Positions 4,374 through 63,156 of a DNA stretch of 64,000 nucleotides are shown here, one piece after another. Source of the DNA: a bacterium (lineage in GTDB: Bacteria > Patescibacteriota > Patescibacteriia > UBA2591 > MWDC01); assembly GCA_021158435.1 (NCBI GenBank), contig JAGGUQ010000005.1, forward strand, positions 527 through 64,526. The letters are read 5' to 3'. The notes below the pieces were generated by a model. The model searched no databases. It was given only the letters and a program-made list of their open reading frames with translations, and had not been told where the DNA came from. The position numbers were made by a program, and so were the translations under genes. Within the stretch, counting starts at the first letter, position 1. Each line of letters starts with the position of its first letter.

Positions 4374-5378
4374 ATGGAAGAAAACTATCAAAACCCCCAA
4401 GAAAAAAACACCTTAGAAAAATCCATTGAAGAAAGCCCTGTTTTGGAAACAACACCCAAACCTTACCTCGATGAAGACGAGATTGACTTGATAGACTATC
4501 TAAAAGTTATTTGGAAAAGAAAAATAGGTGTAATCATTATTACAATCATTGCTGTTTTAGGAACCAGCCTTATTTCTTTATTTGTCCTACCAAAAATTTA
4601 CCAATCAAGCATTTTAATTAAAATAGGGGAAATAAACGGAAAAAATATTGAACAAATAAGTGATATTGCTATTGCTTTAAAACAAGAAAGTATACTTTCT
4701 GAAATTGCCAAAGCATTAAATTGGGATACAGAAAATTCAAAAAATAAAATTGATAATCTAAGGAATAATATAAAATTAGAAAAACAACCAGAAGAAGATT
4801 TAATAAAAATATCTGCTCAAAGTACTTCTCCTGAAGAATCCTATCAAATTATCTCTACTCTTAATAATATTTTACTTTCTTCTCATCAAGAAAAACTTAA
4901 ACAGGCTGAAGATTTAATAAATACAGAAATTGAAAACCTTAAAGAACAAAAACAAAAAATTGAAAAAAATCTTGAGGCTGCCAAACAAAGCTTGGAACAA
5001 ATAAAAAATGATATCTCTTTTTATGAACAAGAAATTAACAAAAGAACAGGCACTGAATCCGAAGCCCAAGGTCTAATTGCCCAATCATATATCAATCTAC
5101 TAGCTGAAGCAAAAAAACAAAAAGAAGACAAAGAATCTCAAATTCTTTCCTTAGAACAAGAAAAACTTAATTTAGATAAAACCATCCAACAAAAAGAATA
5201 TGAAAAAAAATATGGAATGAAAATGAGTGAAGTAGTTGTATCTCCTGAAATTCCAGATAAACCATTTAAACCAAATGTCTTACTAAATACAATTATTGCT
5301 GGAATATTAGGACTATTTATTGGCATTTTCTGGGCTTTTGGAGCAGAATATGTAGAAAAAAACAAAGGAAGACTTTAA
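4374..5378 (+). CDS. Wzz-like polysaccharide chain-length determinant / coiled-coil membrane protein
   Basis: 334 aa; N-terminal TM helix after ~50 aa, long coiled-coil (KQ/E-rich), C-terminal TM helix; position after glycan genes. Confidence 0.45.
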   Translation: MEENYQNPQEKNTLEKSIEESPVLETTPKPYLDEDEIDLIDYLKVIWKRKIGVIIITIIAVLGTSLISLFVLPKIYQSSILIKIGEINGKNIEQISDIAIALKQESILSEIAKALNWDTENSKNKIDNLRNNIKLEKQPEEDLIKISAQSTSPEESYQIISTLNNILLSSHQEKLKQAEDLINTEIENLKEQKQKIEKNLEAAKQSLEQIKNDISFYEQEINKRTGTESEAQGLIAQSYINLLAEAKKQKEDKESQILSLEQEKLNLDKTIQQKEYEKKYGMKMSEVVVSPEIPDKPFKPNVLLNTIIAGILGLFIGIFWAFGAEYVEKNKGRL

Positions 5379-5384
5379 TCCAGA

Positions 5385-5455
5385 CCCCCAAACTTCCCGG
5401 AGAGACTTCCCGGAGGCAGTCTCCGGAGGTACTCCGGAATTAGACGGAATTAGAA
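5385..5455. repeat. REP-like GC-rich palindromic array (CCGGAG / CTCCGGAGG units), locus A
   Basis: cttcccggagagacttcccggaggcagtctccggaggtactccggaat; same unit family recurs at 5 other intergenic loci. Confidence 0.8.
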
Positions 5456-5554: not shown

Positions 5555-6205
5555 ATGGCTATAAGAAAGAGGCTTACAAAAAAGAAATTAACCTCCTTTA
5601 AGGTAGAAGAAGAATTGTTACGAAGAAATATTTTAATATTTTCTCCTCTTGAATTTAGACAAATTTTTAAAGTGACAAAGGAGGCAGCTGCTTTTTTTAT
5701 AAATTATAACTTAAAAAAGGGCTTTTTTATTAAATTAAGAAAAGGACTTTATTCTATGAAACATCATCCACCCTCTGAGTTAGAAATCGCTAATCGAGTT
5801 TACCAACCATCCTACGTTTCCTTAGAATACGCAATGATGTATTATCATATTATTCCTGATACTGTTTATAGTGTAACCTCTGTTACAACAAAAACAACTC
5901 GAGAATTTATTATTAATAATGTATCTTATACTTATAGTAGAATCAAAAAATCTTCTTTTACTGGTTATATAAAAAAATACTTAAACGGGAATATCGTTCT
6001 AATCGCTGAACCAGAAAAAGCTTTTATTGATTATCTTTATTTTGTTGACTTAGGGAAAAAGGTAATTTACGACCGCCTGAACATACACAATCTAACAAAA
6101 GAAAAAATGCTTAACTATGCAAAATTATTTAAGAGAAACTCATTGATAAAATTGTTAAACAACATATATGATAAGCGCCGAAGAAATAAAGAGATTATCT
6201 ATTAG
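5555..6205 (+). CDS. abiEi: AbiEi-family antitoxin / transcriptional regulator (type IV TA system)
   Basis: 216 aa; N-terminal wHTH-like region with KLRKGLYS (RGxY-type) motif, C-terminal PSYVSLEYAMMYYHIIPD domain; paralog of 55931..56518; precedes AbiEii gene with 38-nt overlap. Confidence 0.6.
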   Translation: MAIRKRLTKKKLTSFKVEEELLRRNILIFSPLEFRQIFKVTKEAAAFFINYNLKKGFFIKLRKGLYSMKHHPPSELEIANRVYQPSYVSLEYAMMYYHIIPDTVYSVTSVTTKTTREFIINNVSYTYSRIKKSSFTGYIKKYLNGNIVLIAEPEKAFIDYLYFVDLGKKVIYDRLNIHNLTKEKMLNYAKLFKRNSLIKLLNNIYDKRRRNKEIIY

Positions 6206-6905
6206 AGGGCAAACAAGCCCAACGGTTACCGCCAGAGAATATGTCCAACATTGCTTATTATCCGAACTGTACAAATTAGAAGGGGCTGAAAAGCTTCTAT
6301 TTAAAGGCGGAACTGCTTTAAGAATTATCTATCACAGCCCAAGATTCTCTGAAGATTTGGATTTTACGGGCATTCATCGCATTACTTACTATGAAATTAA
6401 GAATATTCTGACCAAAACGCTGGTCAACTTAAATAATTGGGGCTTTAAAACTGATATTAATGAAGCCAAAAAAACACCTGGGGGATATTTGGCGAATCTT
6501 AACTTCTCGTTTCTGGAATTTAAAATATCAATTAAAGTAGAAATCTCCTTTAGACAAAGCAAACAAAGACTAAAAGCAGAAATTTCCAGAATTAAAAATG
6601 AGTATATCCCATATTACGACATTATCCACCTACCGATAGAAGAAATAATTAAGGGAAAAATTAATGCTCTACTTTCACGAGCGAAAGCGCGTGATTGGTA
6701 TGATTTCTACTTCTTCCTAAATAATAGAATGCTTAGTCCTAAACAAAAAGATGTATTACCACAAATTTTACTAAAACTTAAAAGAACAAAGACAGATTTT
6801 AAAAAGGATTTAAAAAACTTTTTACCTCGCAGTCATTACTCGATACTCAAAAATTTTAAGAATAACTTAATAAAGGAAATTGAAGCTTACTCAAAAAAGG
6901 TTTAG
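6168..6905 (+). CDS. abiEii: AbiEii/AbiGii-family nucleotidyltransferase toxin (DUF1814)
   Basis: LLFKGGTALRIIYHSPRFSEDLDFTG nucleotidyltransferase motif (GGTAL..R.SEDxDF) and downstream KARDWYDFYF motif; paralog of 56493..57185. Confidence 0.75.
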   Translation: MISAEEIKRLSIRGQTSPTVTAREYVQHCLLSELYKLEGAEKLLFKGGTALRIIYHSPRFSEDLDFTGIHRITYYEIKNILTKTLVNLNNWGFKTDINEAKKTPGGYLANLNFSFLEFKISIKVEISFRQSKQRLKAEISRIKNEYIPYYDIIHLPIEEIIKGKINALLSRAKARDWYDFYFFLNNRMLSPKQKDVLPQILLKLKRTKTDFKKDLKNFLPRSHYSILKNFKNNLIKEIEAYSKKV

Positions 6906-6982: not shown

Positions 6983-8002
6983 CTATTCTTTTTTTGCTTG
7001 TTCTAAAATCTTTTTTCGAATTTCTGCAGCAATTTTTGGATTATCTTTAAGAAACTTTTTTGATGCTTCTTTACCAACACCAATCTTAACTTCCCCAAAA
7101 CTTAATGTCCTTCCTGATTGCTTAATAACACCATACTTTATTCCTGTATCAATTAAATCACTTTCTTTAGAAATTCCTTGCCCGTAAATTATATCAAACT
7201 CACAAACCTTAAAAGGAGGCGCTACTTTATTCTTAACTATTTTTGCCCTTACTCTATTCCCTATTATCTCGTCTCCTTTCTTTATTTGAGCCTTTTTTTC
7301 TACTCTAATTCTAACTGAAGAATAAAATTTAAGAGCTAAACCTCCTGGGGTTGTTTCAGGATTGCCAAACATCACCCCTATTTTCTGACGAATCTGATTA
7401 ATAAAAATTACTACTGTTTTTGTTTTATCAACAATTGAAGCCAATTTCCTACAACCCTGGCTCATTAAACGAGCTTGTCTTCCTAAATGTTGTTCTCCCA
7501 TTTCTCCTCTAATTTCAGCTTCTGGGGTTAAAGCAGCAACAGAATCAACAACTATAGCATCTACTCCATTTGAACGAACTAATGTCTCAACTATTTCTAA
7601 GGCTTGCTCTCCTGTATCTGGCTGAGAAATTAAAAGATCGTCAACATTTACACCTAAACGTTTAGCATAATCAGGATCAAGAGCATGCTCAGCATCAACA
7701 TAAGCAGCAACTCCTCCTTTTTTTTGAACTTCAGCCAAAATATGGAGACAAAGAGTAGACTTACCACTCATTTCTGGACCAAAAACTTCAATAATCCTTC
7801 CTCGAGGGATTCCTCCAACTCCCAAAGCTAAATCAAGAGCTAAACATCCAGTAGGAATTACCTCAACGTTCATTTTTCTCGCTTCTCCCAATCTCATAAT
7901 TGACCCTTCTCCAAACTTATTCTTAATCAAATCAATAGCTGCTTGAGCAGCTTTTCTTCTTTGCTCAGGAGAAGGTTGATTTGTTTCTTGTTTTTTAGAC
8001 AT
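6983..8002 (-). CDS. recA: recombinase RecA
   Basis: 339 aa; [13 protein letters not shown] Walker [10 protein letters not shown], classic RecA core. Confidence 0.95.
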
Positions 8003-8064
8003 AAAAGTAAATAAATAAGGTTTTCTTAAGGATAACTAAAAAAATATAAAAAGTCAACTATTTA

Positions 8065-8736
8065 TTAATTTTCTGGAGGATTTTCAACAAAAACAACTTT
8101 TCGGGTTACTTTTCTAAAACTTGAATGCTCTTTTTTAACAGCAACTTCAATAATATTAAGACCAGGATTAAGACTAATATATTCTTCAAAATCACCCCCT
8201 TTAAAATTTTCTATTAAATGTCCATTGATATAAAGATAGGCATTTCTTTCTTCTGTTTTTCCTTTAACTAAAAGAAGGGGCTCTTTGTAAACAATCTGGT
8301 TATCTAATGGAGAATAAACTTCTAAAAACGGCGGCTGGAAAATAGGCAGTATTTTGAAAAAAACAAAACTAAATAAAGCAACAGTCAAAACAACTAAAGG
8401 TATATAAAAATAGAAAAAACTTACTTTTTTAACTTTTGATTCCTTTTTTCTAAAATGAATATCCTGGAAATAAAAACTTGATTCCTCCTCAAAACGGGAC
8501 AAAATCTCTTCCTTATTTTCTATTCCTAAAAAATCTAAGTATCTTCTTAAAAAATTAACTGCATATACTTTACTTGGCAGTTTTTCATAATCTCCTTGCT
8601 CTAAAGCAGAAAGGTAAATTTTACCTATTCTTAGCTCTTTTTCTAGAAACTCTAAACTAATACCTTTTTCCTGCCTTTTTTCTTTTAAAATGTTCCCTAT
8701 ATTCTTAGGGGTTATTAACTTAGTTTGTACTTTCAT
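8065..8736 (-). CDS. RodZ-like membrane protein with N-terminal XRE-type HTH
   Basis: 223 aa; HTH (ILKEKRQEKGISLEFLEKELRIGKIYLSALEQGDYEKLP..YAVNFLRRYLDFLG) followed by single TM helix, as in RodZ. Confidence 0.5.
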   Translation of the reverse strand: MKVQTKLITPKNIGNILKEKRQEKGISLEFLEKELRIGKIYLSALEQGDYEKLPSKVYAVNFLRRYLDFLGIENKEEILSRFEEESSFYFQDIHFRKKESKVKKVSFFYFYIPLVVLTVALFSFVFFKILPIFQPPFLEVYSPLDNQIVYKEPLLLVKGKTEERNAYLYINGHLIENFKGGDFEEYISLNPGLNIIEVAVKKEHSSFRKVTRKVVFVENPPEN

Positions 8737-8741
8737 AAAAA

Positions 8742-10871
8742 TTATTCCTCTTCTTGTTTTCTAAAAACTTGCCTAGGACGCGACCCTTCAGCTGGACCTA
8801 CTGTTCCTTCCTGTTCCAAAAGATCCAACAACCGAGCAGCACGAGCATAACCAATTCTTAGTCTCCTTTGAAGAAAAGTAGCTGAAGCTTTATTTGCTTT
8901 TAAAACCTCTTCTCTTGCCTGATCTAAAAGTTCATCTTCTTCAGCCCCTAATCCTTTTAATCCATTAGAAGCTAAACTCTCTGATAATTCCTGCTCAATA
9001 TCCACATAATCTTCTTGTTCTTGCTCTTGGCTTAAATAACTTACTACGTTTTTTATTTCTTTATCTGAAATATATGGAGCTTGCAATCTCTTTGGTCGAG
9101 AAAGACGAGGAGAAATATAAAGCATATCGCCCTGACCAAGCAATTTTTCTGCTCCAGAAAAATCTAAAATAGTTCTTGAATCAGCCATTGAAGCTACAGA
9201 AAAAGCTATCCTATTAGTAATATTTGCTTTAATTAACCCTGTAATAACATCAACTGATGGCCTTTGAGTAGCTAAAATTAAATGAATTCCTGTAGCTCTA
9301 GCCATTTGAGTTAAACGAACAATACAAGTTTCAACCTCATGAGCAGCAGCAACCATTAAATCAGCCAACTCATCAATTACCACTACAATATAAGGAAGTT
9401 TTTCTACGCCCTCTTGATTATTATAATCTTCTATATTCCTTTTCTTATGCTCCTCTAAAGTTTCAAAACGTCGGGTCATTTCCTTTAAAAGCCATTTTAA
9501 AGCGCTTAAAGCTTTATTTACATCTGTCAAAGGAACAGTTAATAAATGTGGAAGATTTTTATATAGTGTAAGTTCTACCCTTTTCGGATCAATTAAAACA
9601 AACCTCAAATCTGCTGAAGAATTTTGGTAAAGCAAAGTTAAAATAATTGAATTTAGCATTACTGTTTTTCCTGAACCTGTTGCCCCAGCTATCAAAAGAT
9701 GAGGCATTTTAACTAAATCATCAAAATAAACTCTTCCAGCAACATCCTTTCCTAAAGCAAGGGTTAATCTTGACGCTTGCTGAGTAAATTCTTTAAGCAC
9801 CAACAGATCTTTTAAACGAACTATACTGCCTTTCTGGTTAGGCACTTCAATACCAACAAATGACTTTCCTGGAATAGGCGCCTCAATTCTAATTGGATGC
9901 CGAGCCAAAGCTAAGGCAAGATCATTGGAAAGAGAAGTAATTTGAGAAAGCTTAATCCCTTGAGCTGGCCGAAGAGTATATTGAGTAACAGTGGGGCCTA
10001 CTTGGACCTCCCCCATTTCAACAGGGATAGAAAAACTTTCCAAAGTTTTCCTAATAATTTCCTTTGTTTCTTCAATATCTCCTGGATCACAAGTTTTTTC
10101 TGAAAACTCTAAAAGATTAAGAGGATAAGTTGAAGGCGTTGGTTTAACTTTTTTTATAAAATTACTTTCAGCCAAAGGCTCAACATCTTTTTTCAATTTT
10201 AAAGAAACTGTTTTTTTGTTTGAACTAGGTAAAATTGCTTTTTGCTTTAATTTCTTTTTATTTATTTTTACTTTTAAGGGCAAAAGATCTTCTTTTTCTT
10301 CTTGCTCTTCTTCTTGCTCTTCTTTAGGATACCGAGAGCTAAAAATAAAAATAAAACCAGCAGCAATAACTGCCAGAAAAATTACTAAACTAGCCCAAAA
10401 ACCAAAAATTTGAAAAAAGGGCCAAGTTAAAACAAACCCCAAATAACCTCCTCCTTGCTTATTCTTTACTGCTAAAGGATCATCAATTACCATCAAATGA
10501 AGAATTGCTGTTAAGCCCAGAAAAATTAATAACAAGCCAATCCAGGCCAATTTTATTTTATTAAAACGACTTGCTCCAAAGAATATTCTTGCTCCAAAAA
10601 TCAAAACTAGCAAAAATCCCCAGCTTGCCCAACCTAGAACGCTTTCTAAAGCCAGACTCATTTTATTTCCAGCAACCCCAGCTAGCCTTAAAAAACCAAG
10701 CAAAAACACTATAGCAATCACTATTAAAAACAAACCCAATATTTTATACTTTAAAAATCCATCCTCTACCTTCTCCTGATTTTTTGGCTCCATTCTCCTT
10801 TTCTTGGTTTTACTTAACCTAGAAGAACTTCCCTTTCTTTCTTTTCTTTTTCTTGATTTTTTGTTAGCCAT
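8742..10871 (-). CDS. ftsK: DNA translocase FtsK/SpoIIIE
   Basis: 709 aa; N-terminal 4-5 TM helices, linker, motor domain with LLIAGATGSGKT Walker A and ILATQRPSVDVITG, C-terminal gamma-like wHTH. Confidence 0.9.
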   Translation of the reverse strand: MANKKSRKRKERKGSSSRLSKTKKRRMEPKNQEKVEDGFLKYKILGLFLIVIAIVFLLGFLRLAGVAGNKMSLALESVLGWASWGFLLVLIFGARIFFGASRFNKIKLAWIGLLLIFLGLTAILHLMVIDDPLAVKNKQGGGYLGFVLTWPFFQIFGFWASLVIFLAVIAAGFIFIFSSRYPKEEQEEEQEEKEDLLPLKVKINKKKLKQKAILPSSNKKTVSLKLKKDVEPLAESNFIKKVKPTPSTYPLNLLEFSEKTCDPGDIEETKEIIRKTLESFSIPVEMGEVQVGPTVTQYTLRPAQGIKLSQITSLSNDLALALARHPIRIEAPIPGKSFVGIEVPNQKGSIVRLKDLLVLKEFTQQASRLTLALGKDVAGRVYFDDLVKMPHLLIAGATGSGKTVMLNSIILTLLYQNSSADLRFVLIDPKRVELTLYKNLPHLLTVPLTDVNKALSALKWLLKEMTRRFETLEEHKKRNIEDYNNQEGVEKLPYIVVVIDELADLMVAAAHEVETCIVRLTQMARATGIHLILATQRPSVDVITGLIKANITNRIAFSVASMADSRTILDFSGAEKLLGQGDMLYISPRLSRPKRLQAPYISDKEIKNVVSYLSQEQEQEDYVDIEQELSESLASNGLKGLGAEEDELLDQAREEVLKANKASATFLQRRLRIGYARAARLLDLLEQEGTVGPAEGSRPRQVFRKQEEE

Positions 10872-22576: not shown

Positions 22577-23848
22577 CTAAAATATATTCTTAAAAACTTT
22601 CCCTTTAAAGGGTCCAATTAAAGACAGGGCTAAATTGTCTGGCCTAAATAATTCTTTAGCTACCTCTTGAATCTGTTCAGGGGTAACTTTTTTAATTTTT
22701 TCTATCTTCTCCAAAGGAGTTAAAATCTTTTTAGAAAACATCGCCTCTCTTGCAAAAAACGAAGCAAGAAAATCACTGTTCTCCATTTGTATCTTTGTTC
22801 TGCCTTCATAAAACGTTTTTGCTCTTTGTATTTCTTCTTTTGTTATCAATTCTTTTTTTACTCTAAAAAATTCCTCTAAAATAACCTTAACTGCTTCTTT
22901 GACCTTAGCTTTATCTACACCTGCCCAAACAGCAAAACTACCTGTATCCTCGTAAATATTTATATCCATTCTTACAAAATAAGCTAAACCTTTTTCTACC
23001 CTTACTTTCAAAAACAAACGAGAACTCATATATCCCCCCAAAATAACCGCAAGTAAAGATAAGGGATAATTTCTTTCATCATTATAAGGATAACTAATAC
23101 CCCCTAAAGCTATTTGCACTTGATCAACTTCTTTAACTACCTTTTTCATCTTAAAACAAGGACGTTTTTTTGTGAAACTAATAAATCCCTTTTCTTTTCT
23201 TGTTATCTTTTTCCTTGGGAAAAAATACTTTTTAATTAATTCTTCTGAATTAGGTTGAATGTTCCCTGCCAAAACAATTACAATTTTGTCTGGTTGATAA
23301 AAATTATTTTTAAATTCAAGTAATTTTTTTAAACTCAATTTTTTTATATCCCCTATTTCACCACTAATCATCTTCCCTAAGGAATGACTGCCATAAAGTG
23401 TTTGTTCAAAAACATCATCTATATAAAAAAGAGGATTTTCTTTATACATTTTTATTTCTTCAATAATTACATCCTTTTCCTTCAAAAAATCTTCTTTCCT
23501 ACACAAAGAATCAAAAAACATATCTGAAAGAATATCCAAAGCTTTTTCCTGGTTTTTTTTAATTGTTTTAATATGATAAGCTGTTCTATCTTTGGCTGTA
23601 TAAGCATTGTATTCTGCTCCTAAACAATCTAACTCTCTAGTCAAAGCTAATGTATCTGGACGTTTTTTCGTTCCTTTAAATAATAAATGTTCAATAAAAT
23701 GAGAAACCCCCCTTAAGTTATCTGATTCATAGCGAGACCCAACAGGAACTGCTACCAAAACTGTTAAACTAGGAACATTCTTACGGGGAACTAAAATTAA
23801 ACGTGGTCCATTAGGAATTTTCTTTTCTAAAAAAATTCTTTGATTCAT
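22577..23848 (-). CDS. M16-family (pitrilysin-like) zinc peptidase
   Basis: 423 aa; inverted zinc motif HFIEHLLFKGT (HxxEH) near N-terminus. Confidence 0.8.
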   Translation of the reverse strand: MNQRIFLEKKIPNGPRLILVPRKNVPSLTVLVAVPVGSRYESDNLRGVSHFIEHLLFKGTKKRPDTLALTRELDCLGAEYNAYTAKDRTAYHIKTIKKNQEKALDILSDMFFDSLCRKEDFLKEKDVIIEEIKMYKENPLFYIDDVFEQTLYGSHSLGKMISGEIGDIKKLSLKKLLEFKNNFYQPDKIVIVLAGNIQPNSEELIKKYFFPRKKITRKEKGFISFTKKRPCFKMKKVVKEVDQVQIALGGISYPYNDERNYPLSLLAVILGGYMSSRLFLKVRVEKGLAYFVRMDINIYEDTGSFAVWAGVDKAKVKEAVKVILEEFFRVKKELITKEEIQRAKTFYEGRTKIQMENSDFLASFFAREAMFSKKILTPLEKIEKIKKVTPEQIQEVAKELFRPDNLALSLIGPFKGKVFKNIF

Positions 23849-23948
23849 AATAATGCTTGTTTTTTACATAATACCACACCCTTTAAAAAAGTCTATACTC
23901 CCTTTTAAAATTGCTAAAATCCCTAAAAAATACTATAATTTAAAGGGA

Positions 23949-24000
23949 TTCCGGAGAAAGAGATTCCGGAGTCTACCTCCGGGATGTCCAGGATGTAGAG
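23949..24000. repeat. REP-like GC-rich palindromic array, locus B
   Basis: ttccggagaaagagattccggagtctacctccgggatgtccaggatg; shares the 15-nt core ggagtctacctccgg with locus C. Confidence 0.8.
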
Positions 24001-24039
24001 TGGTTCACATGTTTTTAATTTAATAAAACTCCTAAAAAT

Positions 24040-25071
24040 ATGCTTATCTTGGGAATTGAAACAAGTTGTGACGAAACCTCCTTAGCTTTAATTAAAACAA
24101 ACAAGGATAAAATCAAGACAATAAAACACATTACCTATTCCCAAATCAAAATCCACCAACCTTTTGGCGGAGTAGTTCCTGAATTAGCAGCTAGAGCCCA
24201 TCTTGAAAAAATTATTCCTTTAACACAAAAAATTATTAAAAGGAAAGACCTTAAAAAAATAAACTTAATTGCTGTAACCAAAGGTCCAGGATTAATGCCA
24301 TCCCTACTTGTTGGTGTAGAATTAGCTAAAACTCTCAGCTATCTTGAAAAAATCCCTATTTTAGGGATTAATCACTTAGAGGGCCATATATTTAGTATTA
24401 AAAATATCCAAAAAATTAAATATCCTGCCCTAAGTTTAATTGTTTCTGGCGGACACACTTTACTTGTTTTAATCCAAAAACCTTTTAGGTATACTCAAAT
24501 TGGCTCAACCCTTGATGATGCTGCTGGAGAATGCTTTGATAAAGCAGCACAATTTTTAAATCTTGGCTATCCAGGAGGTCCAATTATTTCAAAAATAGCT
24601 ACAAAATGGAGAAATGCACATAAAAATAAAAAGCCAAGCATTTACCTCCCTAGACCAATGCTTTCTAAAAATGATTTTAATTTCAGTTTTTCTGGTTTAA
24701 AAACTGCTCTAATTTATAAGCTAAGAAAAGAAAAATTTCCCTTAGAAGAAGTTTGTGCTGAAATAGAACAAGCAATTGTTGATGTTTTAGTTCAAAAAAC
24801 AATGAAAGCAGTTAGAAGCTATAATGTTAAATCCCTTTTATTAGTTGGTGGAGTAGCAGCTAATGAATTTCTTCGCGAATCTCTCAAAAAACAAGCAAAA
24901 AAATCAAAAGTTAATTTTTTTGTCCCTAGGAAAAAATTAGCTACTGATAATGCAGTAATGATTGCCCTGGCTGGATATGCCCGCTGGCAAACCTTAAGTC
25001 AAGAACAAAAACAAAAAGCAAAAAAGTATTCCCTAAAAATCCAGCCTGACCCTTCACTCAGTTTAAAATAA
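24040..25071 (+). CDS. tsaD: tRNA N6-adenosine threonylcarbamoyltransferase TsaD (Kae1/Gcp)
   Basis: 343 aa; GIETSCDETS N-terminus, LSLIVSGGHTLL, conserved metal-binding His pair. Confidence 0.9.
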   Translation: MLILGIETSCDETSLALIKTNKDKIKTIKHITYSQIKIHQPFGGVVPELAARAHLEKIIPLTQKIIKRKDLKKINLIAVTKGPGLMPSLLVGVELAKTLSYLEKIPILGINHLEGHIFSIKNIQKIKYPALSLIVSGGHTLLVLIQKPFRYTQIGSTLDDAAGECFDKAAQFLNLGYPGGPIISKIATKWRNAHKNKKPSIYLPRPMLSKNDFNFSFSGLKTALIYKLRKEKFPLEEVCAEIEQAIVDVLVQKTMKAVRSYNVKSLLLVGGVAANEFLRESLKKQAKKSKVNFFVPRKKLATDNAVMIALAGYARWQTLSQEQKQKAKKYSLKIQPDPSLSLK

Positions 25072-25093: not shown

Positions 25094-25152
25094 GGACTTT
25101 CCTGGAGACTTTCCCGGAGTCTACCTCCGGAGACTGCCTCCGGGAATGGGAT
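25094..25152. repeat. REP-like GC-rich palindromic array, locus C
   Basis: cctggagactttcccggagtctacctccggagactgcctccgggaatggg. Confidence 0.8.
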
Positions 25153-25188
25153 TTGCCTTAAATTTTAGAACTTAATTAAATAAATTCT

Positions 25189-25626
25189 ATGAATATTATT
25201 ACTAAAAGTCCTGAACAAACAAAAAAAATTGCTGAAAACTTTGCCAAAAAACTAAAAGGCGGAGAAATTATTGGACTTACTGGACCCTTAGGTAGTGGGA
25301 AAACTGTTTTTGTTCAAGGATTAGCTAAAGGACTAAAAATTAAAGAAAAAATTACTAGCCCTTCATTTGTTTTAATGAAATTCTATAAAACAAATAAAAA
25401 AGCTGTAAAACAGCTTATTCACTTAGATGCCTGGCGATTAAATTCTCCTCAAGATTTAGAACAATTAGGAATCACCGAACTTTTAACTGAAGACAATGTA
25501 ATTGTAATTGAATGGATAGAAAAAGTAGAAAAATTTTTCAAAAATAAATCTTTAATAATTATCAAATTTACCTTAGGTCAGCAGGAAAAAACTAGAAAAA
25601 TCAGTATAAAAAACAAAAAAGTATAA
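25189..25626 (+). CDS. tsaE: tRNA threonylcarbamoyladenosine biosynthesis ATPase TsaE (YjeE)
   Basis: 145 aa; GLTGPLGSGKTVFVQGLAKGL P-loop typical of TsaE; adjacent to tsaD. Confidence 0.8.
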   Translation: MNIITKSPEQTKKIAENFAKKLKGGEIIGLTGPLGSGKTVFVQGLAKGLKIKEKITSPSFVLMKFYKTNKKAVKQLIHLDAWRLNSPQDLEQLGITELLTEDNVIVIEWIEKVEKFFKNKSLIIIKFTLGQQEKTRKISIKNKKV

Positions 25627-27288: not shown

Positions 27289-28731
27289 CTATTCTCCTTT
27301 TATAACTGCTAATGGCTTTAATTTAGCTACTTTCTTGGACAAACCAGCTTTATCCACAATCTCAACAACTTCATCAATATCTTTATAAGCCAAAGGAGCT
27401 TCTTCAGCTATGCCTTTTAAAGAATAACATCTTACTATTATTCCCTGTTTCTTTAACTTTTCAACAACCTCTCTCCCATTAATTTGCCGAAGGGCTGATT
27501 TTCTGGACATCCTCCTCCCTGCCCCATGACAAGTGGAAAAAAATGTCTCCTCAGCTGTTGACACTCCTTTTAAGATATAGGAATAAGAACCCATTGAACC
27601 AGGGATTAAAACAGGTTGACCAACTTCTCTATATTTCTCTGGAATATCTAAGGACCCTGGAGGGAAAGCACGGGTTGCCCCTTTCCGGTGAACTAAAAGT
27701 TTCACTTTTTTCCCATCAATTAAATGCTCTTCCAATTTAGCAATATTATGAGCAACATCATAAAGAAGTCTTAGCTCTCCGAAATTCCCAATAACCTTTT
27801 CCCAAGATTTTCTTACATAATGGGTGATCATTTGACGGTTAGCCCAAGCATAATTGCACGCAGCTGACATAGCTTTGAAGAATCTTTGCCCTTCTTCAGA
27901 TTTAAAAGGCACGCAAGCTAACTCTTTATCTGGCAATTTTATCTTGTATTTTTGGTAAGCTCTAACGGTTACTCCTAAGTAATCTGTACAATTCTGATGA
28001 CCCAAACCTCTTGATCCAGTGTGAATCATTATAGTTATTCTATCTTTGCTTAAACCAAAAACTCGAGCAGCCTGTTCATCATAAATTTCTTCAACTTTTT
28101 GAATTTCGCAAAAGTGGTTGCCAGAGCCAAGCGTACCTACCTGATCTCTACCCCTTTGTTTTGCTCTTTCAGAAACACATGAAGCAGACGCCTGTTCCAT
28201 TCTCCCTTGATGTTCACAATTTGCTATATCTTCCTCAAAACCATACCCCTGAGAAACTAAATAATAAGCTCCTCCTTGTAAAATCTTGTCAATTTGCTGA
28301 ATGCTTAACTTAACACTCCTTCCCCTTCCTAAACCAGAAGGTATTTGTTCTTGAATTTCTTTAGAAAGTTTTTCTAAATAAGGCCTTATTTCTTTTTCTG
28401 TCTTTTCTGAAATTAAAAGGCGGCAACCACAATTTTCATCATAACCAACAAAACCCGGTGAAATAACTCCCTGATTAACTTCTATTGCTCCAACTCCTCC
28501 AATTGGAGGGCCATATCCTGAATGAATATCCGGCATTGCTAAAGCATACTTTTGAATACCCAATAATGTTGTTGTGTTAACCAATTGCTCCAGCGATTCA
28601 TCCCTTAATATGTCATCTAACATCTTTTCAGAAGCATAAAAGCGGGCAGGGACCCTCATATCATTACGAAATGATTTGGGGATCTCATAAACAAATGGTT
28701 TGATTTTCTTAATATGTTTCCTTTCTATCAT
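27289..28731 (-). CDS. rtcB: RNA ligase RtcB (3'-phosphate/5'-hydroxyl RNA ligase)
   Basis: 480 aa; MRVPARFYASE, MPDIHSGYGPPIGGV, GSGNHFCEIQ, HNIAKLEEH motifs of RtcB. Confidence 0.9.
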   Translation of the reverse strand: MIERKHIKKIKPFVYEIPKSFRNDMRVPARFYASEKMLDDILRDESLEQLVNTTTLLGIQKYALAMPDIHSGYGPPIGGVGAIEVNQGVISPGFVGYDENCGCRLLISEKTEKEIRPYLEKLSKEIQEQIPSGLGRGRSVKLSIQQIDKILQGGAYYLVSQGYGFEEDIANCEHQGRMEQASASCVSERAKQRGRDQVGTLGSGNHFCEIQKVEEIYDEQAARVFGLSKDRITIMIHTGSRGLGHQNCTDYLGVTVRAYQKYKIKLPDKELACVPFKSEEGQRFFKAMSAACNYAWANRQMITHYVRKSWEKVIGNFGELRLLYDVAHNIAKLEEHLIDGKKVKLLVHRKGATRAFPPGSLDIPEKYREVGQPVLIPGSMGSYSYILKGVSTAEETFFSTCHGAGRRMSRKSALRQINGREVVEKLKKQGIIVRCYSLKGIAEEAPLAYKDIDEVVEIVDKAGLSKKVAKLKPLAVIKGE

Positions 28732-54819: not shown

Positions 54820-54824
54820 CTTAC

Positions 54825-54901
54825 GGGCTGTGGCACAGTTGGTTAGCGCACTCGCCTGGGGGGCGAGAGGTCGCCGGTTCGAGTCCGGCCAGCCCGACCA
54901 G
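54825..54901 (+). tRNA. tRNA-Pro (anticodon GGG)
   Basis: Hand-folded cloverleaf: 7-bp acceptor CGGGCUG/CAGCCCG, anticodon stem CUCGC/GCGAG with loop CUGGGGG (G37), T-arm GCCGG-UUCGAGU-CCGGC, discriminator A, encoded CCA; coordinates +/-1. Confidence 0.85.
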
Positions 54902-55041: not shown

Positions 55042-55087
55042 CTTATAAGCAAAAATTTCAAAACAACACCATAATTCCAAAGGCCCA

Positions 55088-55152
55088 TATTCCCGGAGCC
55101 ATCCCGGAGGTAGTCTCCGGAGGCAGCCTCCGGAGGCAGCCTCCGGGAAAGG
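55088..55152. repeat. REP-like GC-rich palindromic array, locus D
   Basis: cccggagccatcccggaggtagtctccggaggcagcctccggaggcagcctccggg; includes perfect 17-nt palindrome ccggaggcagcctccgg twice. Confidence 0.8.
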
Positions 55153-55247
55153 TCGGGGAAAAAACTCCAATTACTGGCGTCATTGAACCTTTTTTGAATA
55201 AAATCCGCAAGCAAGTTTTGAATAATCCTGAAAGGGCCTTACTCTTA

Positions 55248-55952
55248 TTATCTTCCCGCCAAATAAACGTTTTTTAGTTTCTCGTCGCTTAAAACCTCTT
55301 TTCCACCCTTCAGGACAATCTTGCCGCCTTCTAAAATATAAGTCCTGTGAGCAATTTCTGCTGCTTTCTTAACATTTTGCTCAACAATAATTATTGATAT
55401 GCCTTGTTTATTAATTTCTTTTATCTTTTCAAAAATTTCTTTCATTACTTTTGGTGCTAGCCCTAAAGAGGGTTCATCTAAAAGAAGTAATTCTGGGTCC
55501 TGAATTAGCGCTCTTGCTATAGCCAACATTTGTTGTTGGCCTCCGGACAAAGTAAAAGCTCTATCATTCTGCTTTTGTTTCAAAACCGGAAATTTTTCAA
55601 AAACGTCTTCCAAGTTTCTTTTAAATAACTTATGGTCTTTCATTATAAAAGCCCCCATTTCCAAATTTTCCCGGACAGTCAACGTGGGAAATATCTGCCT
55701 TCCTTGGGGAACATAAGAAATTCCTTCATAAATCAGGTAATAAGTGGGAAGATTTGTAATATCTTTATTCTTATATTCAATAGTTCCATTATAAATCTCA
55801 CATAAGTTAAAAATACTCTTTAATAGAGTTGATTTCCCAGCTCCATTGGGCCCGATCAAAGCCACAATTTCCGCTGGCTTTACTTCTAAGTCAACCCCAT
55901 GCAATATCTCCATTCCATTGTAGCCAGACTTTAGATTTTGGATATTGAGCAT
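55248..55952 (-). CDS. livF: LIV-type (HAAT family) ABC transporter ATP-binding protein LivF-like
   Basis: 234 aa; LIGPNGAGKSTLL Walker A, LSGGQQQMLAIARAL signature, LLLDEPS Walker B. Confidence 0.85.
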   Translation of the reverse strand: MLNIQNLKSGYNGMEILHGVDLEVKPAEIVALIGPNGAGKSTLLKSIFNLCEIYNGTIEYKNKDITNLPTYYLIYEGISYVPQGRQIFPTLTVRENLEMGAFIMKDHKLFKRNLEDVFEKFPVLKQKQNDRAFTLSGGQQQMLAIARALIQDPELLLLDEPSLGLAPKVMKEIFEKIKEINKQGISIIIVEQNVKKAAEIAHRTYILEGGKIVLKGGKEVLSDEKLKNVYLAGR

Positions 55953-56518
55953 ACAATTGGTCTTAAATATTTATTAAGCCGGGTATAATCCACTCTTTTT
56001 AAATAAGTTTTTAACCTTTTTTTATTCAAGCCCTCTAAATTCATCTCCTCTATATCAAATTTAGCATAACCATTTAATGAAAGATAAGCCTGATCTAAAA
56101 GGGCTTTCTCAGGAGTCGCGACTAAATAATTAGCTTCTTTTTTATACCCCCAAAACATTCTCTCTTGTAAATGATGGTAAATCAAATTCCTCTGACTTGT
56201 TTTTATAGTTTTACTTCTATTTATAGTAGCCAAGGTCAAATGAATAGGCTTTTGGCTCATTATATTATAATAACTTAACGCCCATTCAAAAGAAAGATAA
56301 CTTGGATAATAAATTTCTACAGCTAAACTCTGCCAATCAACTTTATTAATGTTAATAGTATAAACCCCTCTGGTAATTCTAATTAACTTCTTATCTTTTA
56401 CCAACCGATTGAGAGCTACTTTTAAACTTTTATCACTAAGATTGGTAATCTTTTTTATGTCAGCAAAATAAAAATAGGTTTTGGGAATAGATTTAATTCT
56501 TTCTGCTAATTTTTTCAT
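55931..56518 (-). CDS. abiEi: AbiEi-family antitoxin / regulator (second copy), encoded downstream of its toxin
   Basis: 195 aa; ITRGVYTININ and YYPSYLSFEWALSYYNIM paralogous to 5555..6205 protein. Confidence 0.6.
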   Translation of the reverse strand: MKKLAERIKSIPKTYFYFADIKKITNLSDKSLKVALNRLVKDKKLIRITRGVYTININKVDWQSLAVEIYYPSYLSFEWALSYYNIMSQKPIHLTLATINRSKTIKTSQRNLIYHHLQERMFWGYKKEANYLVATPEKALLDQAYLSLNGYAKFDIEEMNLEGLNKKRLKTYLKRVDYTRLNKYLRPIVCSISKI

Positions 56519-57185
56519 ATAATTGTTGAATTACTGGATAATATTCTTTAGGTAAAAATACTTGTAATTCGTTCCTAAACTCTCGCTCAGAGTATTTTGG
56601 CATCTTCTCTGGCAAAACAAAATTTTCTCTTAACAACCTAGAAATATACCATAAGTCGAAAACATCTCTTGCTTTTTTTCTTTTACTTAAACTTTCTTGC
56701 TTTAGTTTTTTTAATTCTGTGATAGTTGGGACTAAAAGCAATGGCTCTAAGGCACTAACTGGGCTTTTAATTAAAGATAATTCCTTGTCTAATTTTATTC
56801 TCTTATTTGGTTTATGAATTTCTACTTTTATAGAAAATGCGTGTTTTAACTTATTGTCCTTGATTAAAAATAAAGCAAACATTGTCTTTCTTTTATCCTT
56901 AGCATCTTTCAGTTGCCAATTTTGGTTATCTTTAACTGTTTGTTTAACCAAATCTCTAAAATCCGAAAAATTTATTTTCTTTATTTGAATCAAGTCTATA
57001 TCTTCTGAAAAACGGGGTGAACCATAAACCAGCCGCAAAGCTGTTCCTCCATAGAAAATAAGCTTAGAGGAAATTTTATGCTTAGCTAGCGCATTTAAAA
57101 AAATCACTTCTGCTTCTTCCTGTAAAATTCTATCTGCTGATATTTTTATTTTTTCAACCAAATTGTTTAATGTTTCAATATCCAT
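56493..57185 (-). CDS. abiEii: AbiEii/AbiGii-family nucleotidyltransferase toxin (second copy)
   Basis: 230 aa; LIFYGGTALRLVYGSPRFSEDIDLIQ and KARDVFDLWYI motifs. Confidence 0.75.
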   Translation of the reverse strand: MDIETLNNLVEKIKISADRILQEEAEVIFLNALAKHKISSKLIFYGGTALRLVYGSPRFSEDIDLIQIKKINFSDFRDLVKQTVKDNQNWQLKDAKDKRKTMFALFLIKDNKLKHAFSIKVEIHKPNKRIKLDKELSLIKSPVSALEPLLLVPTITELKKLKQESLSKRKKARDVFDLWYISRLLRENFVLPEKMPKYSEREFRNELQVFLPKEYYPVIQQLYEKISRKN

Positions 57186-57631: not shown

Positions 57632-58699
57632 CTATTCAATTAACTCTGGTTTCCCGTTAATAATTTTTTTAATTGCAAATCCTATTCCTACTACATCTCC
57701 ATTACTATCAAATCTATATTTTCCTATCACTCCATCATATTCTTCTAATCCATACAAGTAATCTCTAATACATTCAGTATTTTCTCCACACTTTTTTAAA
57801 GCATCCGCTATTATATAAACTCTATCGTAGCTTGCTCCAGCATCCCAATCACTAGCAGGTTGCCCATATCGAGCAGTGTATTTATCCACGAAAATCTTAG
57901 CTTTAGGATTTTTTAAATCCAACACAGGAACATCTTCGAATATTATCCCTTCAGCTGCGGACCCGGCTGATTTTAAAGCATCTTCCCCACTAAAAACCCA
58001 TGTGCTAAGAATTGGCACATCAATTTTCATTTCTCTAATCTGTTTTGCCGCTAACCCTCCAGTTATACCTGAATAAGCGCCTAGAAATATTAGGTCTGGA
58101 TTGCTCGCTTTTATTTTTATTAATTGAGTCCTGTAATCCTTTTCTCCCAGTCCAAAAAGCTCATCGCTTACTATTTTCCCTCTTAATTGTTCAAATTTTT
58201 CTTTAAAAACATCTCTTAATCCGATTGTGACATCTGAACTTTCTGCCAAAATTGCCGCTTTTCTGTGTCCCCTGTCGAAAGCTAATTGAGCTAAAAACCT
58301 GCCAGCATCGTCGTCTCTAGGGCCATTTCTAAAAACAAAATCTCCTGCCTCTGAAATAGCAGGATTAGACGCATAAGAGCTAAATAAAATTACTTTATTC
58401 CTTTCTGCAATCGGTGCCATAGCTAACGTTTCAGCACTAGTCGTTCCACCTAAAACTACTTTTACCCCATCAATATTTATTAATTTCTGAATAGCTGTTA
58501 CTGCAGCCTGAGCTTCACCCTTCCCATCTTCAGGAATTAATTCTAGTTGTCTTCCATTTATTCCACCATCATTGTTTATTTCCTCAACTGCAAGTTCAAT
58601 AGCGTTTAATTCGCTCTGGCCATAATTAGCAGCATCACCACTTAAAGTTCCTACAAAACCAATCTTTATAACCTCTTCTTCAGCAGGCTTTCTACTCAC
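57632..58699 (-). CDS. LIV-type periplasmic substrate-binding protein paralog, N-terminally truncated (no signal peptide/anchor; GTG start) - possibly a pseudogene
   Basis: 355 aa; begins VSRKPAEEEV, which is internal (post-anchor) in paralog 58886..60055; in-frame TAG 3 codons upstream where the paralog has TGG; REP array immediately upstream. Confidence 0.6.
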   Translation of the reverse strand: MSRKPAEEEVIKIGFVGTLSGDAANYGQSELNAIELAVEEINNDGGINGRQLELIPEDGKGEAQAAVTAIQKLINIDGVKVVLGGTTSAETLAMAPIAERNKVILFSSYASNPAISEAGDFVFRNGPRDDDAGRFLAQLAFDRGHRKAAILAESSDVTIGLRDVFKEKFEQLRGKIVSDELFGLGEKDYRTQLIKIKASNPDLIFLGAYSGITGGLAAKQIREMKIDVPILSTWVFSGEDALKSAGSAAEGIIFEDVPVLDLKNPKAKIFVDKYTARYGQPASDWDAGASYDRVYIIADALKKCGENTECIRDYLYGLEEYDGVIGKYRFDSNGDVVGIGFAIKKIINGKPELIE

Positions 58700-58718
58700 C
58701 CCCCACTAAATTCCAGCA

Positions 58719-58795
58719 ATCCGGAGGCTGCCTATTTCCGGAGGCTGCCTCCGGGATGACTCCGGGATAACCTCCAGGATGAATCTGGAATTTCT
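58719..58795. repeat. REP-like GC-rich palindromic array, locus E
   Basis: aatccggaggctgcctatttccggaggctgcctccgggatgactccgggataacctccagg; includes perfect palindrome ccggaggctgcctccgg. Confidence 0.8.
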
Positions 58796-58885
58796 AACCC
58801 TATTCCGTGCAAAATTCCCATTCCATAAAAATTCATGAAAACTTTAGTTCTTTGAAAACCTTTACGGATAAAATTATATTTTGTT

Positions 58886-60055
58886 TCATTGCTGAACCTC
58901 CTGTGGATATTTTTCCATTAATACCTCAAATTTACCATTTCTTACAATCTTAAGTCCCCAGGACTTGGTTACATCCCCATGTTCATCAAACGTTATATCG
59001 CCAGTAACAGCAGGAAAATTTTTAATTCTGTACAACATTTTCTTTATATTATCCGAACTTGGAAAAGATGCTCGTTTTATTGCATAATAAATAACATTAA
59101 AAGCATCGTACGATAATGCAGTTACAATGCCTGGTTCCTCGGTAGTGTTAAAAAACTTTTGGTACCTATCCCTGAAACTTTTAACCCTGGAGTCAGAACT
59201 TTTGATATTAAACATGATAGAACCATATATTACTCCTTCTGCTGCCTCTCCTGCAATTTTTAGAACCTCTGGATTTTCAAAATCAGCTGTACTTAAAAAT
59301 TGCGGTTTAAAACCCATTTCGTGAGATTGTCTTACTATAAACCCCAACTCCTTAGAATGCCCTACAATTAATACTACTTCGGGATTTTTAATGCTTACTT
59401 TTAAAATTATTGTCCTAAAATCAGTGTTTCCTGGTTCATATCTTTCAGTTATAATGGAATTATTTTTTAAACCTAATTCTTTCAGTCTTTGAATATATTC
59501 ATCTTTTACTGCCAATCCAAATTCATCGCCTCTGTAAATTACTCCTACTCTTTTAGCAGTGAGTTCTCTGACTGTATAATCAGCAAGCATGATGCTTCTT
59601 TTTTCGTCGCTAGGATATATCCTAAAAATATAATCACCGGCTTTGGCTATATCCTTATGTGGAGCGGTAGGGGTAAGTAAAACTACTTTGGCTTTCTCTA
59701 CAATTGGAGCTACAGAAAGGACTTCATTACTGGATAAAGGCCCGATAATAGCTTGGACTTTATCTACTGATATCAATTTTTGAACAGCAGAAACTGCTTT
59801 TTTGGAGTCTGCCTCAGAATCTTCATAAATTATACGGAGCAGCTTTCTCTCATCTAAATTAAGTTCATCCAACGCTAATTCAATACCTTTCCTTAGCTGT
59901 TCTCCCCACGTGCTGGCAGGCCCAGAAAGAGGCGCTATAATCCCAATCTTAACTACCTCTTCTTCAGCAGGCTTTCTACTCACCCCCCACCAAATTCCAG
60001 CAATAACAACAATGATTACAATCAGCCAAACGATTGTTTTTGTTGTTTTGGACAT
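58886..60055 (-). CDS. LIV-type substrate-binding protein with N-terminal membrane anchor/signal
   Basis: 389 aa; N-terminal TM helix WLIVIIVVIAGIWWG then periplasmic binding protein type I fold (GIIAPLSGPAS..). Confidence 0.8.
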   Translation of the reverse strand: MSKTTKTIVWLIVIIVVIAGIWWGVSRKPAEEEVVKIGIIAPLSGPASTWGEQLRKGIELALDELNLDERKLLRIIYEDSEADSKKAVSAVQKLISVDKVQAIIGPLSSNEVLSVAPIVEKAKVVLLTPTAPHKDIAKAGDYIFRIYPSDEKRSIMLADYTVRELTAKRVGVIYRGDEFGLAVKDEYIQRLKELGLKNNSIITERYEPGNTDFRTIILKVSIKNPEVVLIVGHSKELGFIVRQSHEMGFKPQFLSTADFENPEVLKIAGEAAEGVIYGSIMFNIKSSDSRVKSFRDRYQKFFNTTEEPGIVTALSYDAFNVIYYAIKRASFPSSDNIKKMLYRIKNFPAVTGDITFDEHGDVTKSWGLKIVRNGKFEVLMEKYPQEVQQ

Positions 60056-60905: not shown

Positions 60906-61755
60906 ATAACCCGCGTGGTTTTTTAATTAATATTAAAAGCAAAAGTAAGGCATAAATCATCTGCCTGGCTGGTCCAATAATTGATGAAGGAAAACCAACG
61001 AATCTCAATGGTTCTGGTAGTAACACTAAGATTATGGTGGCAATAATTGTGCCTTTTAATGAAGCTAAGCCACCAATAATCACAATTGCTAATACTGGAA
61101 TTAACTGTGATAAAGTAAATGAAGAGGGGTCAATAAAAGTAATATAATATGCATATAAAGAACCAGCAATTCCTGCAAAAAAAGCAGAAATCCCTAAAGC
61201 ATAACTCTTCATTTTAAAAGTATTTTTACCTAAAACCCTAGTTGCCAGTTCATCATCTCGTATTGCTTCTAATACTCTTCCAAAAGGGGATTTGGTAATT
61301 CTTGTAATGATTAAATAAGAAATTAAAGCAATAACAAAAACTAAAACTAAGAAACTAAAATTATCAGAAAAAGTAAAACCAAATAAACTTGGTTTAGGAA
61401 TTCCCGGCAACCCTAAAGGCCCTCTAGTCAAACCTGTCCAATTCAAAGTAATAGCATAAATAACAAAAGTAAAAGCCAAAGTAGCTAAAGCTAAATAGTC
61501 TCCTTTAAGTTTGTTAGTGGAAATGGCTAATAAAAAGCCAAAAAACATTGCACCTATACCAGCTAATAAAAAACAAAACCAAAAAGGTAGGCCAGCTAAG
61601 GCAAGTAAAGCTGAAATATAGGCACCAATTGCATAAAAAGCAATATGACCAAGATTAAGCAAACCAGTAAAACCAACTGACAATTGCAAGGAAATCGCCA
61701 GAATCAAATAAATCCCAATTAAAATTAATAAGTGAATTAAGTAAGCTGATATCAT
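60883..61755 (-). CDS. livM: LIV-type ABC transporter permease LivM-like
   Basis: 290 aa, ~8 TM; overlaps livG start by 23 nt. Confidence 0.8.
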   Translation of the reverse strand: MISAYLIHLLILIGIYLILAISLQLSVGFTGLLNLGHIAFYAIGAYISALLALAGLPFWFCFLLAGIGAMFFGFLLAISTNKLKGDYLALATLAFTFVIYAITLNWTGLTRGPLGLPGIPKPSLFGFTFSDNFSFLVLVFVIALISYLIITRITKSPFGRVLEAIRDDELATRVLGKNTFKMKSYALGISAFFAGIAGSLYAYYITFIDPSSFTLSQLIPVLAIVIIGGLASLKGTIIATIILVLLPEPLRFVGFPSSIIGPARQMIYALLLLLILIKKPRGLYGRIELE

Positions 61756-62898: not shown

Positions 62899-62943
62899 AA
62901 AATTAGATTTAAGTTGTTAGTTATAAGATTTAAGTAAAACGAC

Positions 62944-63062
62944 CTTCCGGAACATCCCGAAGAACATCCCGGAGGCAGTCTCCGGAGGTAGGCAGTCTCC
63001 GGAGGTAGTCTCCGGAGGCAGACTCCGGGAAGTCCATGGACTTCGGGATGGAGTATCCGGGA
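62944..63062. repeat. REP-like GC-rich palindromic array, locus F (largest; includes 22-nt palindrome ccgggaagtccatggacttcggg)
   Basis: ccggaggcagtctccggaggtaggcagtctccggaggtagtctccggaggcagactccgggaagtccatggacttcggg. Confidence 0.85.
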
Positions 63063-63155: not shown

Positions 63156-63156
63156 G

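Follow-up and report, generated by a model that had tools for sequence, protein, structure and literature searches.

The stretch of DNA analysed here (64 kb, hereafter the window) carries six short, GC-rich, palindromic arrays between its genes, which raises the question of what kind of repeat they are and how they came to occupy their sites. An earlier note, made from the sequence alone, had described a non-coding palindromic family at six sites, and this description was borne out, as exact and near matches to the motif are confined to the intergenic sites it named. The octamer CTCCGGAG occurs seven times in the 64 kb against 0.08 expected from shuffles, and 11 copies of the hairpin unit CCGGAG-N5-CTCCGG are present where 0.00 are expected. 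In a search for CCGGAGGYAGHCTCCGG that tolerated up to 3 mismatches, all 23 matches (23/23) lie within the six sites and none elsewhere in the 64 kb, so that the window is without additional relics of the family. The arrays have a G+C content of 59% against ~32% for the window, whose GC skew is uniformly negative. All six are located between ORFs. The median intergenic gap in the window is 22 nt, and six of its 11 longest gaps contain an array; together the arrays make up ~12% of its intergenic DNA. The strings quoted in the earlier note were found where it had placed them, ccggaggcagtctccggagg in arrays A and F and ggagtctacctccgg in arrays B and C. The 17-mers it had called perfect palindromes in arrays D and E do possess 8-bp arms, although one unpaired central base lies between them, and the reported 22-nt palindrome of array F is in fact a perfect 16-mer, GAAGTCCATGGACTTC, with imperfect extensions.

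The arrays share the form TCCCGGAG-[G(C/T)AGN-CTCCGGAG]n-G(C/T)AGN-CTCCGGGA. The unit is 13 nt long, an 8-nt palindrome plus an asymmetric 5-nt spacer, and is repeated head-to-tail and closed by inverted ends of 8-9 bp. A period of 13 nt and the consensus CCGGAGGCAGTCT were returned by Tandem Repeats Finder. All but two of 55 spacers are 5 nt in length and every one begins with G(C/T)AG (GTAGA 21, GCAGT 17, GCAGA 7, GTAGT 5 and GCAGC 3 copies). The 8-bp palindrome is invariant and the spacer is variable at two positions. Polarity is uniform within an array, all G(Y)AGN spacers facing one direction and only the terminal half-sites being inverted. The two ends of an array are reverse complementary to one another and distinct from the palindromes inside it; runs start with TCCCGGAG in 22 of 27 cases and end with CTCCGGG in 16 of 27. 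The perfect core is often bordered by further units in mirror image (left, CCCGGAG-N4-6; right, N4-6-CTCCGGG), and the outermost units are decayed (e.g. CTGGAG, CCAGAG, TCGGAG, CCGAAG), mostly by transitions. Two hairpin units per array are usual, with a range of 1-5; a 36-mer of the family reads TTCCCGGAGGCAGTCTCCGGAGGTAGACTCCGGGAA. The units are not free-standing. Each site is a single polar array whose ends are distinct and inverted and whose edge units are decayed, and we therefore prefer the slightly wider limits given below for arrays B to F.

Because the palindrome is only 8 nt long, hairpins form between neighbouring units with CCGGAG-N5-CTCCGG stems of 6-8 bp, and the spacer tetranucleotide is thus found in the loop and not at the foot of the stem. 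Folding of the arrays, which had been suggested at the outset, showed that whole arrays form long hairpins as RNA (z -3.5 to -7.4); as RNA or single-stranded DNA these are nested, with z between -3.5 and -7.5, as a result of the mirrored layout of the units. A coding repeat or small peptide was rejected, since the 13-nt period breaks the reading frame and the ORFs overlapping arrays D and F are short and artefactual.

Array A is located at 5385-5455 on the plus strand, strand here meaning the orientation of the canonical unit, CTCCGGAGGYAGN. Its perfect core (5396-5438) reads CCCGGAGAGACTT-CCCGGAG-GCAGT-CTCCGGAG-GTA-CTCCGGA and is followed by a tail with two copies of the 10-nt CGGAATTAGA. The neighbouring genes are a Wzz-like one (4374-5378) and an AbiEi/AbiEii pair (5555-6905); the right half of the array is different in strains L091-L093. 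The AbiEi/AbiEii module directly after array A (plus strand) is one of two in the window, both toxin-antitoxin modules of the abortive-infection type; the other (55931-57185, minus strand) lies within the operon of the liv ABC transporter, where it has a livJ-like gene and livF as its neighbours. Array B (23943-24008, minus) has its core at 23950-23983 with decayed units on either side, and separates the divergent genes for an M16 peptidase (22577-23848, minus) and tsaD (24040-25071, plus). Array C (25094-25156, minus) occupies the gap from tsaD to tsaE (25189-25626), which are both plus-strand genes. It consists of the commonest element of the family, CCCGGAGGCAGTCTCCGGAGGTAGACTCCGGG (the reverse strand of 25113-25144), together with decayed units (CCTGGAG), and its RNA fold has an energy of -27.9 kcal/mol (z -3.5).

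The remaining arrays of the window are associated with the liv genes. Array D (55085-55160, plus), between tRNA-Pro (54824-54900, plus) and a livF-like gene (55248-55952, minus), has three perfect hairpin units (spacers GTAGT, GCAGC and GCAGC) and one extra unit on the left, and folds into a single 70-nt hairpin (RNA -55.7 kcal/mol, z -7.4; DNA -29.4, z -7.5). Array E (58715-58800, minus) contains one perfect hairpin unit with irregular and decayed units (CCAGGATG, TCTGGA). It is found between two livJ-like genes of the minus strand (58886-60055 and 57632-58699), and the second of these begins at a GTG 20 nt downstream of the array. This second gene is without the first ~24 residues, a probable signal peptide, that are present in its paralogues, and it may have been truncated or swapped at array E. 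Array F (62940-63065, plus) is the largest. Its four hairpin units include an internal duplication of 17 nt and are flanked by decayed units (TCCCGAAG / CTTCGGGA); the array also contains the 16-nt palindrome mentioned above and forms a 120-nt nested hairpin (-67.9 kcal/mol, z -5.9). It separates two genes of the minus strand, one livH-like (63157-63957) and one livJ-like (61759-62898). A seventh array, G, is located just beyond the end of the window, at the equivalent of ~64328-64394. In the same locus, near-identical segments are found upstream of two liv permease genes (61677-61701 and 63073-63097, minus strand), within wider repeat segments (~61666-61755 and 63062-63163) that contain a 25-nt hairpin-plus-T-tract motif, CTGGCGATTTCCTT(A/G)CAATTGTCAG. 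Judged by this likeness, they indicate a putative segmental duplication within the liv locus.

Besides the liv-type ABC transporter, the genes of the window include rpoB/rpoC, ribosomal-protein operons, and RtcB with archease. A metagenome contig of 105.8 kb (JGI 3300017593 Ga0187538_155970) matches the window over part of its length with 99.8% identity, and the samples in which the genome is present include JGI 3300017593, 3300021469, 3300016457 and 3300033141 and ENA ERZ23499183 and ERZ23499535. The nearest homologues of its TsaD outside the population are only 60% identical, the named ones being from Patescibacteria/Parcubacteria MAGs, which identifies the host as an uncultured CPR bacterium without a close sequenced relative. 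A pattern scan of 185,579 species-representative genomes found the family in none of them, the 29 single matches being due to chance and all in genomes with 52-76% GC. Among viral contigs there were only 2 single matches, one of them in a GC-rich contig that was also hit in the metagenome scan, and a phage origin was rejected on this basis. From the JGI metagenomes, in contrast to these searches, a scan recovered 18 contigs with 30-36% GC, most of them belonging to samples Ga0190359, Ga0190360 and Ga0190361. Two are orthologues of the window (L034 and L044; 97-98% identical), 15 represent other loci, and one (L068) is a chance coding match, in which PEAASGG is encoded in a dehydratase-like gene; this is the sole intragenic match. 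After removal of redundancy ~24 distinct loci remained (the six of the window, the seventh array and ~17 further), all intergenic, so that a pattern search did find the motif enriched beyond the six sites, in contigs of the same population. Contigs beyond the window were retrieved via the motif, which biases copy, density and context figures there, and the density of ~1 array per 10 kb is taken from the window as the sole unbiased estimate. Many of the contigs end at an array, as is expected of a multi-copy repeat.

In the two nearest relatives (L080 and L082; ~60% TsaD identity) the tsaD region is syntenic and free of such arrays, and the family appears restricted to one species-level lineage. 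In L080 (6873-7112) the tsaD-tsaE spacer is 238 nt long and has two copies of another repeat, AACCCTTTATT(G/A)ATGCGGGTT, possibly a lineage-specific family of its own in the equivalent place; tsaE of this relative is seemingly split into ORFs of 72 and 60 aa.

The heterogeneous 30-mer CCGGAGGCAGTCTCCGGAGGTAGACTCCGG is found at 8 loci with unrelated flanks. The presence of the same two-spacer 30-mer at 8 unrelated loci implies that a composite element was copied between sites, rather than that independent slippage took place. The arrays are not parts of a single larger mobile element, a possibility raised with the first description, since B and C flank the housekeeping gene tsaD, whose synteny is kept in array-less relatives. 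An assembly or adapter artefact was likewise rejected, as several samples, assembled independently in the JGI and ENA data, show the same arrays at the same loci apart from minor allelic differences.

Between co-occurring strains the arrays are the fastest-changing sequence. Strains that are 98-99.8% identical were compared, and every array has an indel in at least one of them. L001 is 99.8% identical to the window, and over 21 kb the two differ by a single indel, an additional 13-nt unit, TCCGGAGTCTACC, in array B of L001. Array B is absent from L034 and L083, where ~66 nt are replaced by TT with no target-site duplication; because the array already holds decayed units, this polymorphism could be a deletion and not an insertion. 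Array C differs from that of L034 by a 12-nt indel (-12) and 3 substitutions. Array D is 25 nt shorter in L044 (-25), with 21% mismatch, and has one spacer substitution in L085. Array F exists as alleles of 84, 67, 79 and 70 nt (-17, -5 and -14 relative to the 84-nt allele), of which the 79-nt allele also has a 12-nt insert. Three of these alleles occur in strains with an identical neighbouring binding protein, and the 70-nt allele (L044) occurs beside a protein that is 99.5% identical; array G has a length change of -13 nt between strains. Indel sizes of 12, 13, 14, 17 and 25 nt suggest misalignment between short repeats and not the addition of a fixed unit. Pooled over the arrays, mismatches amount to 23 in 413 aligned nt (5.6%), as opposed to 54 in 3234 (1.7%) in other intergenic DNA and 202 in 31241 (0.65%) in coding DNA. 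Arrays C-F are kept at the same sites in all strains, which is compatible with a function and at ≤2% divergence says little either way. Two further differences between strains were seen away from the arrays themselves. L044 has an extra 34 nt (aatttaattttaaggctggtggagcccacttatt) between tRNA-Pro(GGG) and array D, near window position ~55053, and in L083 (3330-4702) RtcB is called as two ORFs (101 and 309 aa) in place of the 480-aa gene at window 27289-28731, a split that could be a frameshift, a deletion or an assembly error.

On balance we favour the explanation that the arrays are a REP-like, lineage-specific, non-autonomous repeat family that was copied to new intergenic sites and then underwent slippage, in an uncultured Patescibacteria (CPR) bacterium. 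The first step is the copying of a composite two-unit element of ~32-36 nt into new intergenic sites, as the shared 30-mer shows; it may have been carried out by a single-strand hairpin-recognising transposase of the Y1/RAYT type, or by a recombination route. The copies subsequently grow and shrink by replication slippage or hairpin misalignment, as is seen among strains in steps of ~12-17 nt. The edge units, lastly, would escape homogenisation and decay by transitions towards the AT-rich background. A perfect centre with decayed edges is indeed the pattern that slippage-homogenised tandem arrays under AT-biased mutation would be expected to produce. Arrays of this kind are probably selfish or nearly neutral, and may have side effects as stable transcript hairpins (e.g. 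between the liv cistrons) and as recombination breakpoints. The interpretation put forward in the earlier note is, taken as a whole, partly supported by these results.

For a possible mobilising enzyme, a gene of the Y1_Tnp/RAYT type (IS200/IS605-like, PF01797-type) was sought in the window, in extensions of ~20 kb and beside the arrays in 15 other contigs, and none was found in this span of ~190 kb (counted with overlaps, and estimated at 15-20% of a roughly 1-Mb genome). Neither was any other transposase found in the window or in the examined array-bearing contigs. A regular-expression search for HUH...Y and Y..NPV motifs, which is a weak test, gave no match, and a Pfam scan in array-bearing contigs covered 10 ORFs that were not recognisable by eye. 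Two kinds of gene near arrays deserve mention. L057 encodes a Xer-like tyrosine recombinase (Phage_integrase family; 7878-8894) at ~1 kb from three arrays in consecutive intergenic gaps. AAA_14-DUF4143 ATPases that are 28% identical to each other are encoded in L062 (204-1469, minus) and L079 (2699-3946, minus) and match the PADLOC candidate defence system PDC-S01; both genes have arrays on either side in the same orientation, which recalls RAYT genes flanked by REPs. This arrangement is probably a consequence of array clustering, since arrays that cluster in neighbouring gaps leave genes flanked on both sides, and a special link to the ATPase genes was rejected because several housekeeping genes are flanked likewise.

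Selection at the RNA level is the first alternative to be weighed, and we consider it unlikely. The arrays would here be transcribed hairpins that end transcripts or shield upstream mRNA from 3'-5' decay, and thereby set cistron expression. REPs of E. coli located downstream of malE and hisJ protect upstream mRNA or set relative cistron expression. The arrays form very stable hairpins, most of them lie 20-130 nt from a gene end, and D, E, F and G occupy cistron boundaries of the liv ABC transporter, with E after a binding-protein gene and D after the last gene; by analogy with the E. coli REPs it is plausible that hairpins at these boundaries alter mRNA decay. However, the features of a rho-independent terminator are missing. 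The GC-rich hairpins are without a directly following U-tract, the sequences after the arrays are not T-rich, and a terminator scan of 54.5-64 kb flagged only the decayed minus-strand edge of F and called neither D nor E, so the terminator role proposed at first is not upheld. Orientation relative to transcription also shows no bias of a kind that would point to an RNA-level role. Among 17 classifiable arrays, in a tally made by hand from crude ORF calls with motif-selected contigs included, 9 lie between co-directional genes, 4 between convergent genes and 4 between divergent genes, i.e. in promoter regions, and the co-directional arrays are mixed in orientation (6 sense, 3 antisense). The statement that the arrays occur in tandem, convergent and divergent settings accordingly stands, with the qualification that site D is convergent solely relative to tRNA-Pro. 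A known RNA family was rejected, Rfam matching only tRNA-Pro in the window. Copy number and sequence vary among near-identical strains, one array is dispensable, and the flanking genes (tsaD/tsaE, liv genes, AbiE, GroEL, ValS, GreA and others) are without a functional theme. The mixed contexts, the lack of U-tracts, of an Rfam match and of a gene theme, the strain variability and the dispensability of array B together argue against a strongly selected terminator, operator or structural-RNA role.

That the arrays are clustered sites for a host DNA-binding protein, which would recognise CTCCGGAG at 13-bp spacing and serve chromosome organisation or promoter regulation, seems to us quite improbable. 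Such a protein could be nucleoid-associated, ParB/Noc-like or a global regulator. In favour of such sites, the palindrome is invariant beside a spacer that varies at two positions, and arrays B, C, E and F end 20-60 nt upstream of start codons, in the expected promoter region. The Bacillus Noc-binding site is ATTTCCCGGGAAAT, and the outer half-sites TTTCCCGG / CCGGGAAA resemble it, which we take as a lead only. Yet the absence of a theme among the flanking genes speaks against this reading as well, relatives with the same gene order do without the arrays, unit number is unstable between strains, and sites that follow one another at 13 bp do not share a face of the helix; nor was a candidate protein found.

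We give little credence to the arrays being recombination or insertion hotspots that delimit exchangeable defence and transporter cassettes, acted on by a site-specific recombinase or hairpin-processing nuclease. Their link to rearrangement, which had been asserted for this window, has limited support, in the presence or absence of array B and in L044. There the gene downstream of E is replaced by a different livJ-like paralogue of full length (L044:6998-8134) with 38% protein identity to the window gene, identity of the DNA on either side is 97-98%, and the swapped segment has one of its ends within array E. Array A abuts the AbiE module, the two PDC-S01 genes have same-orientation arrays on both sides, and the Xer-like recombinase of L057 lies close to three arrays. 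Against these associations, arrays also bracket the housekeeping gene tsaD in a gene order that is conserved without them, their clustering in adjacent gaps (L045, L057) means that double-flanked genes are expected, and L044 is a single breakpoint case in an array-selected set of contigs.

Equally doubtful is a self-contained mini-satellite that would spread without a RAYT, by hairpin-dependent seeding and extension, its arrays serving as breakpoints for swaps of transporter and defence cassettes in a reduced CPR genome. Candidate processes for it would be snap-back or template-switch synthesis, or a nuclease/ATPase such as the array-flanked AAA_14-DUF4143 proteins. Restriction-site avoidance or a methylation target was rejected, as CCGG is not depleted outside the arrays (38 against ~43 expected).

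A copied and slipping repeat family, which we prefer, would be of consequence for the view of this phylum. The genomes of CPR/Patescibacteria are compact and small, and they are regarded as poor in repetitive or mobile DNA. No account of this motif, or of REP elements in Patescibacteria, was found in the literature. Discovery of a cognate transposase would carry systems of the REP/RAYT type into a very distant phylum, in an element of different architecture, whereas its absence would mean that repeats have spread here with no known enzyme to mobilise them. On a practical level the arrays break metagenome assemblies, and they offer ready-made strain-typing (VNTR) markers for an uncultured lineage.

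Several known repeat systems were considered for comparison. A CRISPR array, with repeats of at least 23 nt and unique spacers of similar length, was rejected, the period here being 13 nt and the 5-nt spacers being drawn from five variants only. Cyanobacteria carry STRRs, which are short tandemly repeated heptamers and non-palindromic, and HIP1, an octamer palindrome (GCGATCGC) that is scattered singly and also within genes. The arrays resemble STRRs in their very short tandem units at dispersed intergenic sites and HIP1 in the over-representation of an 8-nt palindrome; unlike in either, the palindrome occurs only in polar arrays with inverted ends. With MITEs they have in common a non-autonomous nature, terminal inverted repeats (TCCCGGAG / CTCCGGGA, 8-9 bp) and a presence/absence polymorphism at one site. 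They are however much shorter (32-120 nt), contain variable internal tandem units, have no known parent insertion sequence, and show no target-site duplication at the sole filled/empty pair (B against L034 and L083). The MIRUs of Mycobacterium tuberculosis are dispersed intergenic minisatellites (VNTRs) with non-palindromic units of 40-100 bp that often carry small ORFs overlapping neighbouring genes. Tandem units, many intergenic sites, often inside operons, and unit numbers that differ between close strains are shared with them. The length changes of arrays B (+13), C, D, F and G are VNTR-like in this sense, and some length-variant strains encode identical flanking proteins. The units of the arrays are in contrast 13 nt long, palindromic and unreadable in one frame.

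The closest likeness in behaviour is to REP elements. REP/BIME and REPIN-RAYT (TnpA_REP) systems are hosted by Enterobacteria, Pseudomonas and Stenotrophomonas. In the refined definition of Nunvar et al., as quoted in PMC3686654, REPs are characterised by a 5' GT(A/G)G tetranucleotide with a palindrome, high copy number and an almost exclusively intergenic location, and by a cognate RAYT (Y1 HUH transposase) gene flanked by inverted REPs; REPINs are inverted REP doublets (PMC3116915, PMC3337134). The arrays are likewise short, GC-rich, hairpin-forming, dispersed, lineage-specific and almost exclusively intergenic, they occur in higher-order clusters, and the unrelated flanks of their copies imply copying. 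Set against this definition, they have the palindrome and hairpin (6-8-bp stems, folding z -3.5 to -7.5) and the numerous intergenic copies (6 in 64 kb, a seventh and ~17 further loci). The tetranucleotide of their spacers is GTAG in 26 cases, which fits GT(A/G)G, and GCAG in 27, which does not, and it is located in the hairpin loop; a G(T/C)AG beside each palindrome is suggestive of the REP tetranucleotide. A BIME-like build, as first proposed, is not what was found, the units being head-to-tail with a fixed 13-nt period and not inverted REP doublets as in REPINs and BIMEs. No RAYT was found in the ~190 kb searched. The palindrome is just 8 nt, and the host is an AT-rich CPR bacterium with a reduced genome as opposed to the proteobacteria. 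The family is thus real, well defined and lineage-specific, behaving like REP elements and built differently from them, and its unusual host and architecture make it of moderate interest.
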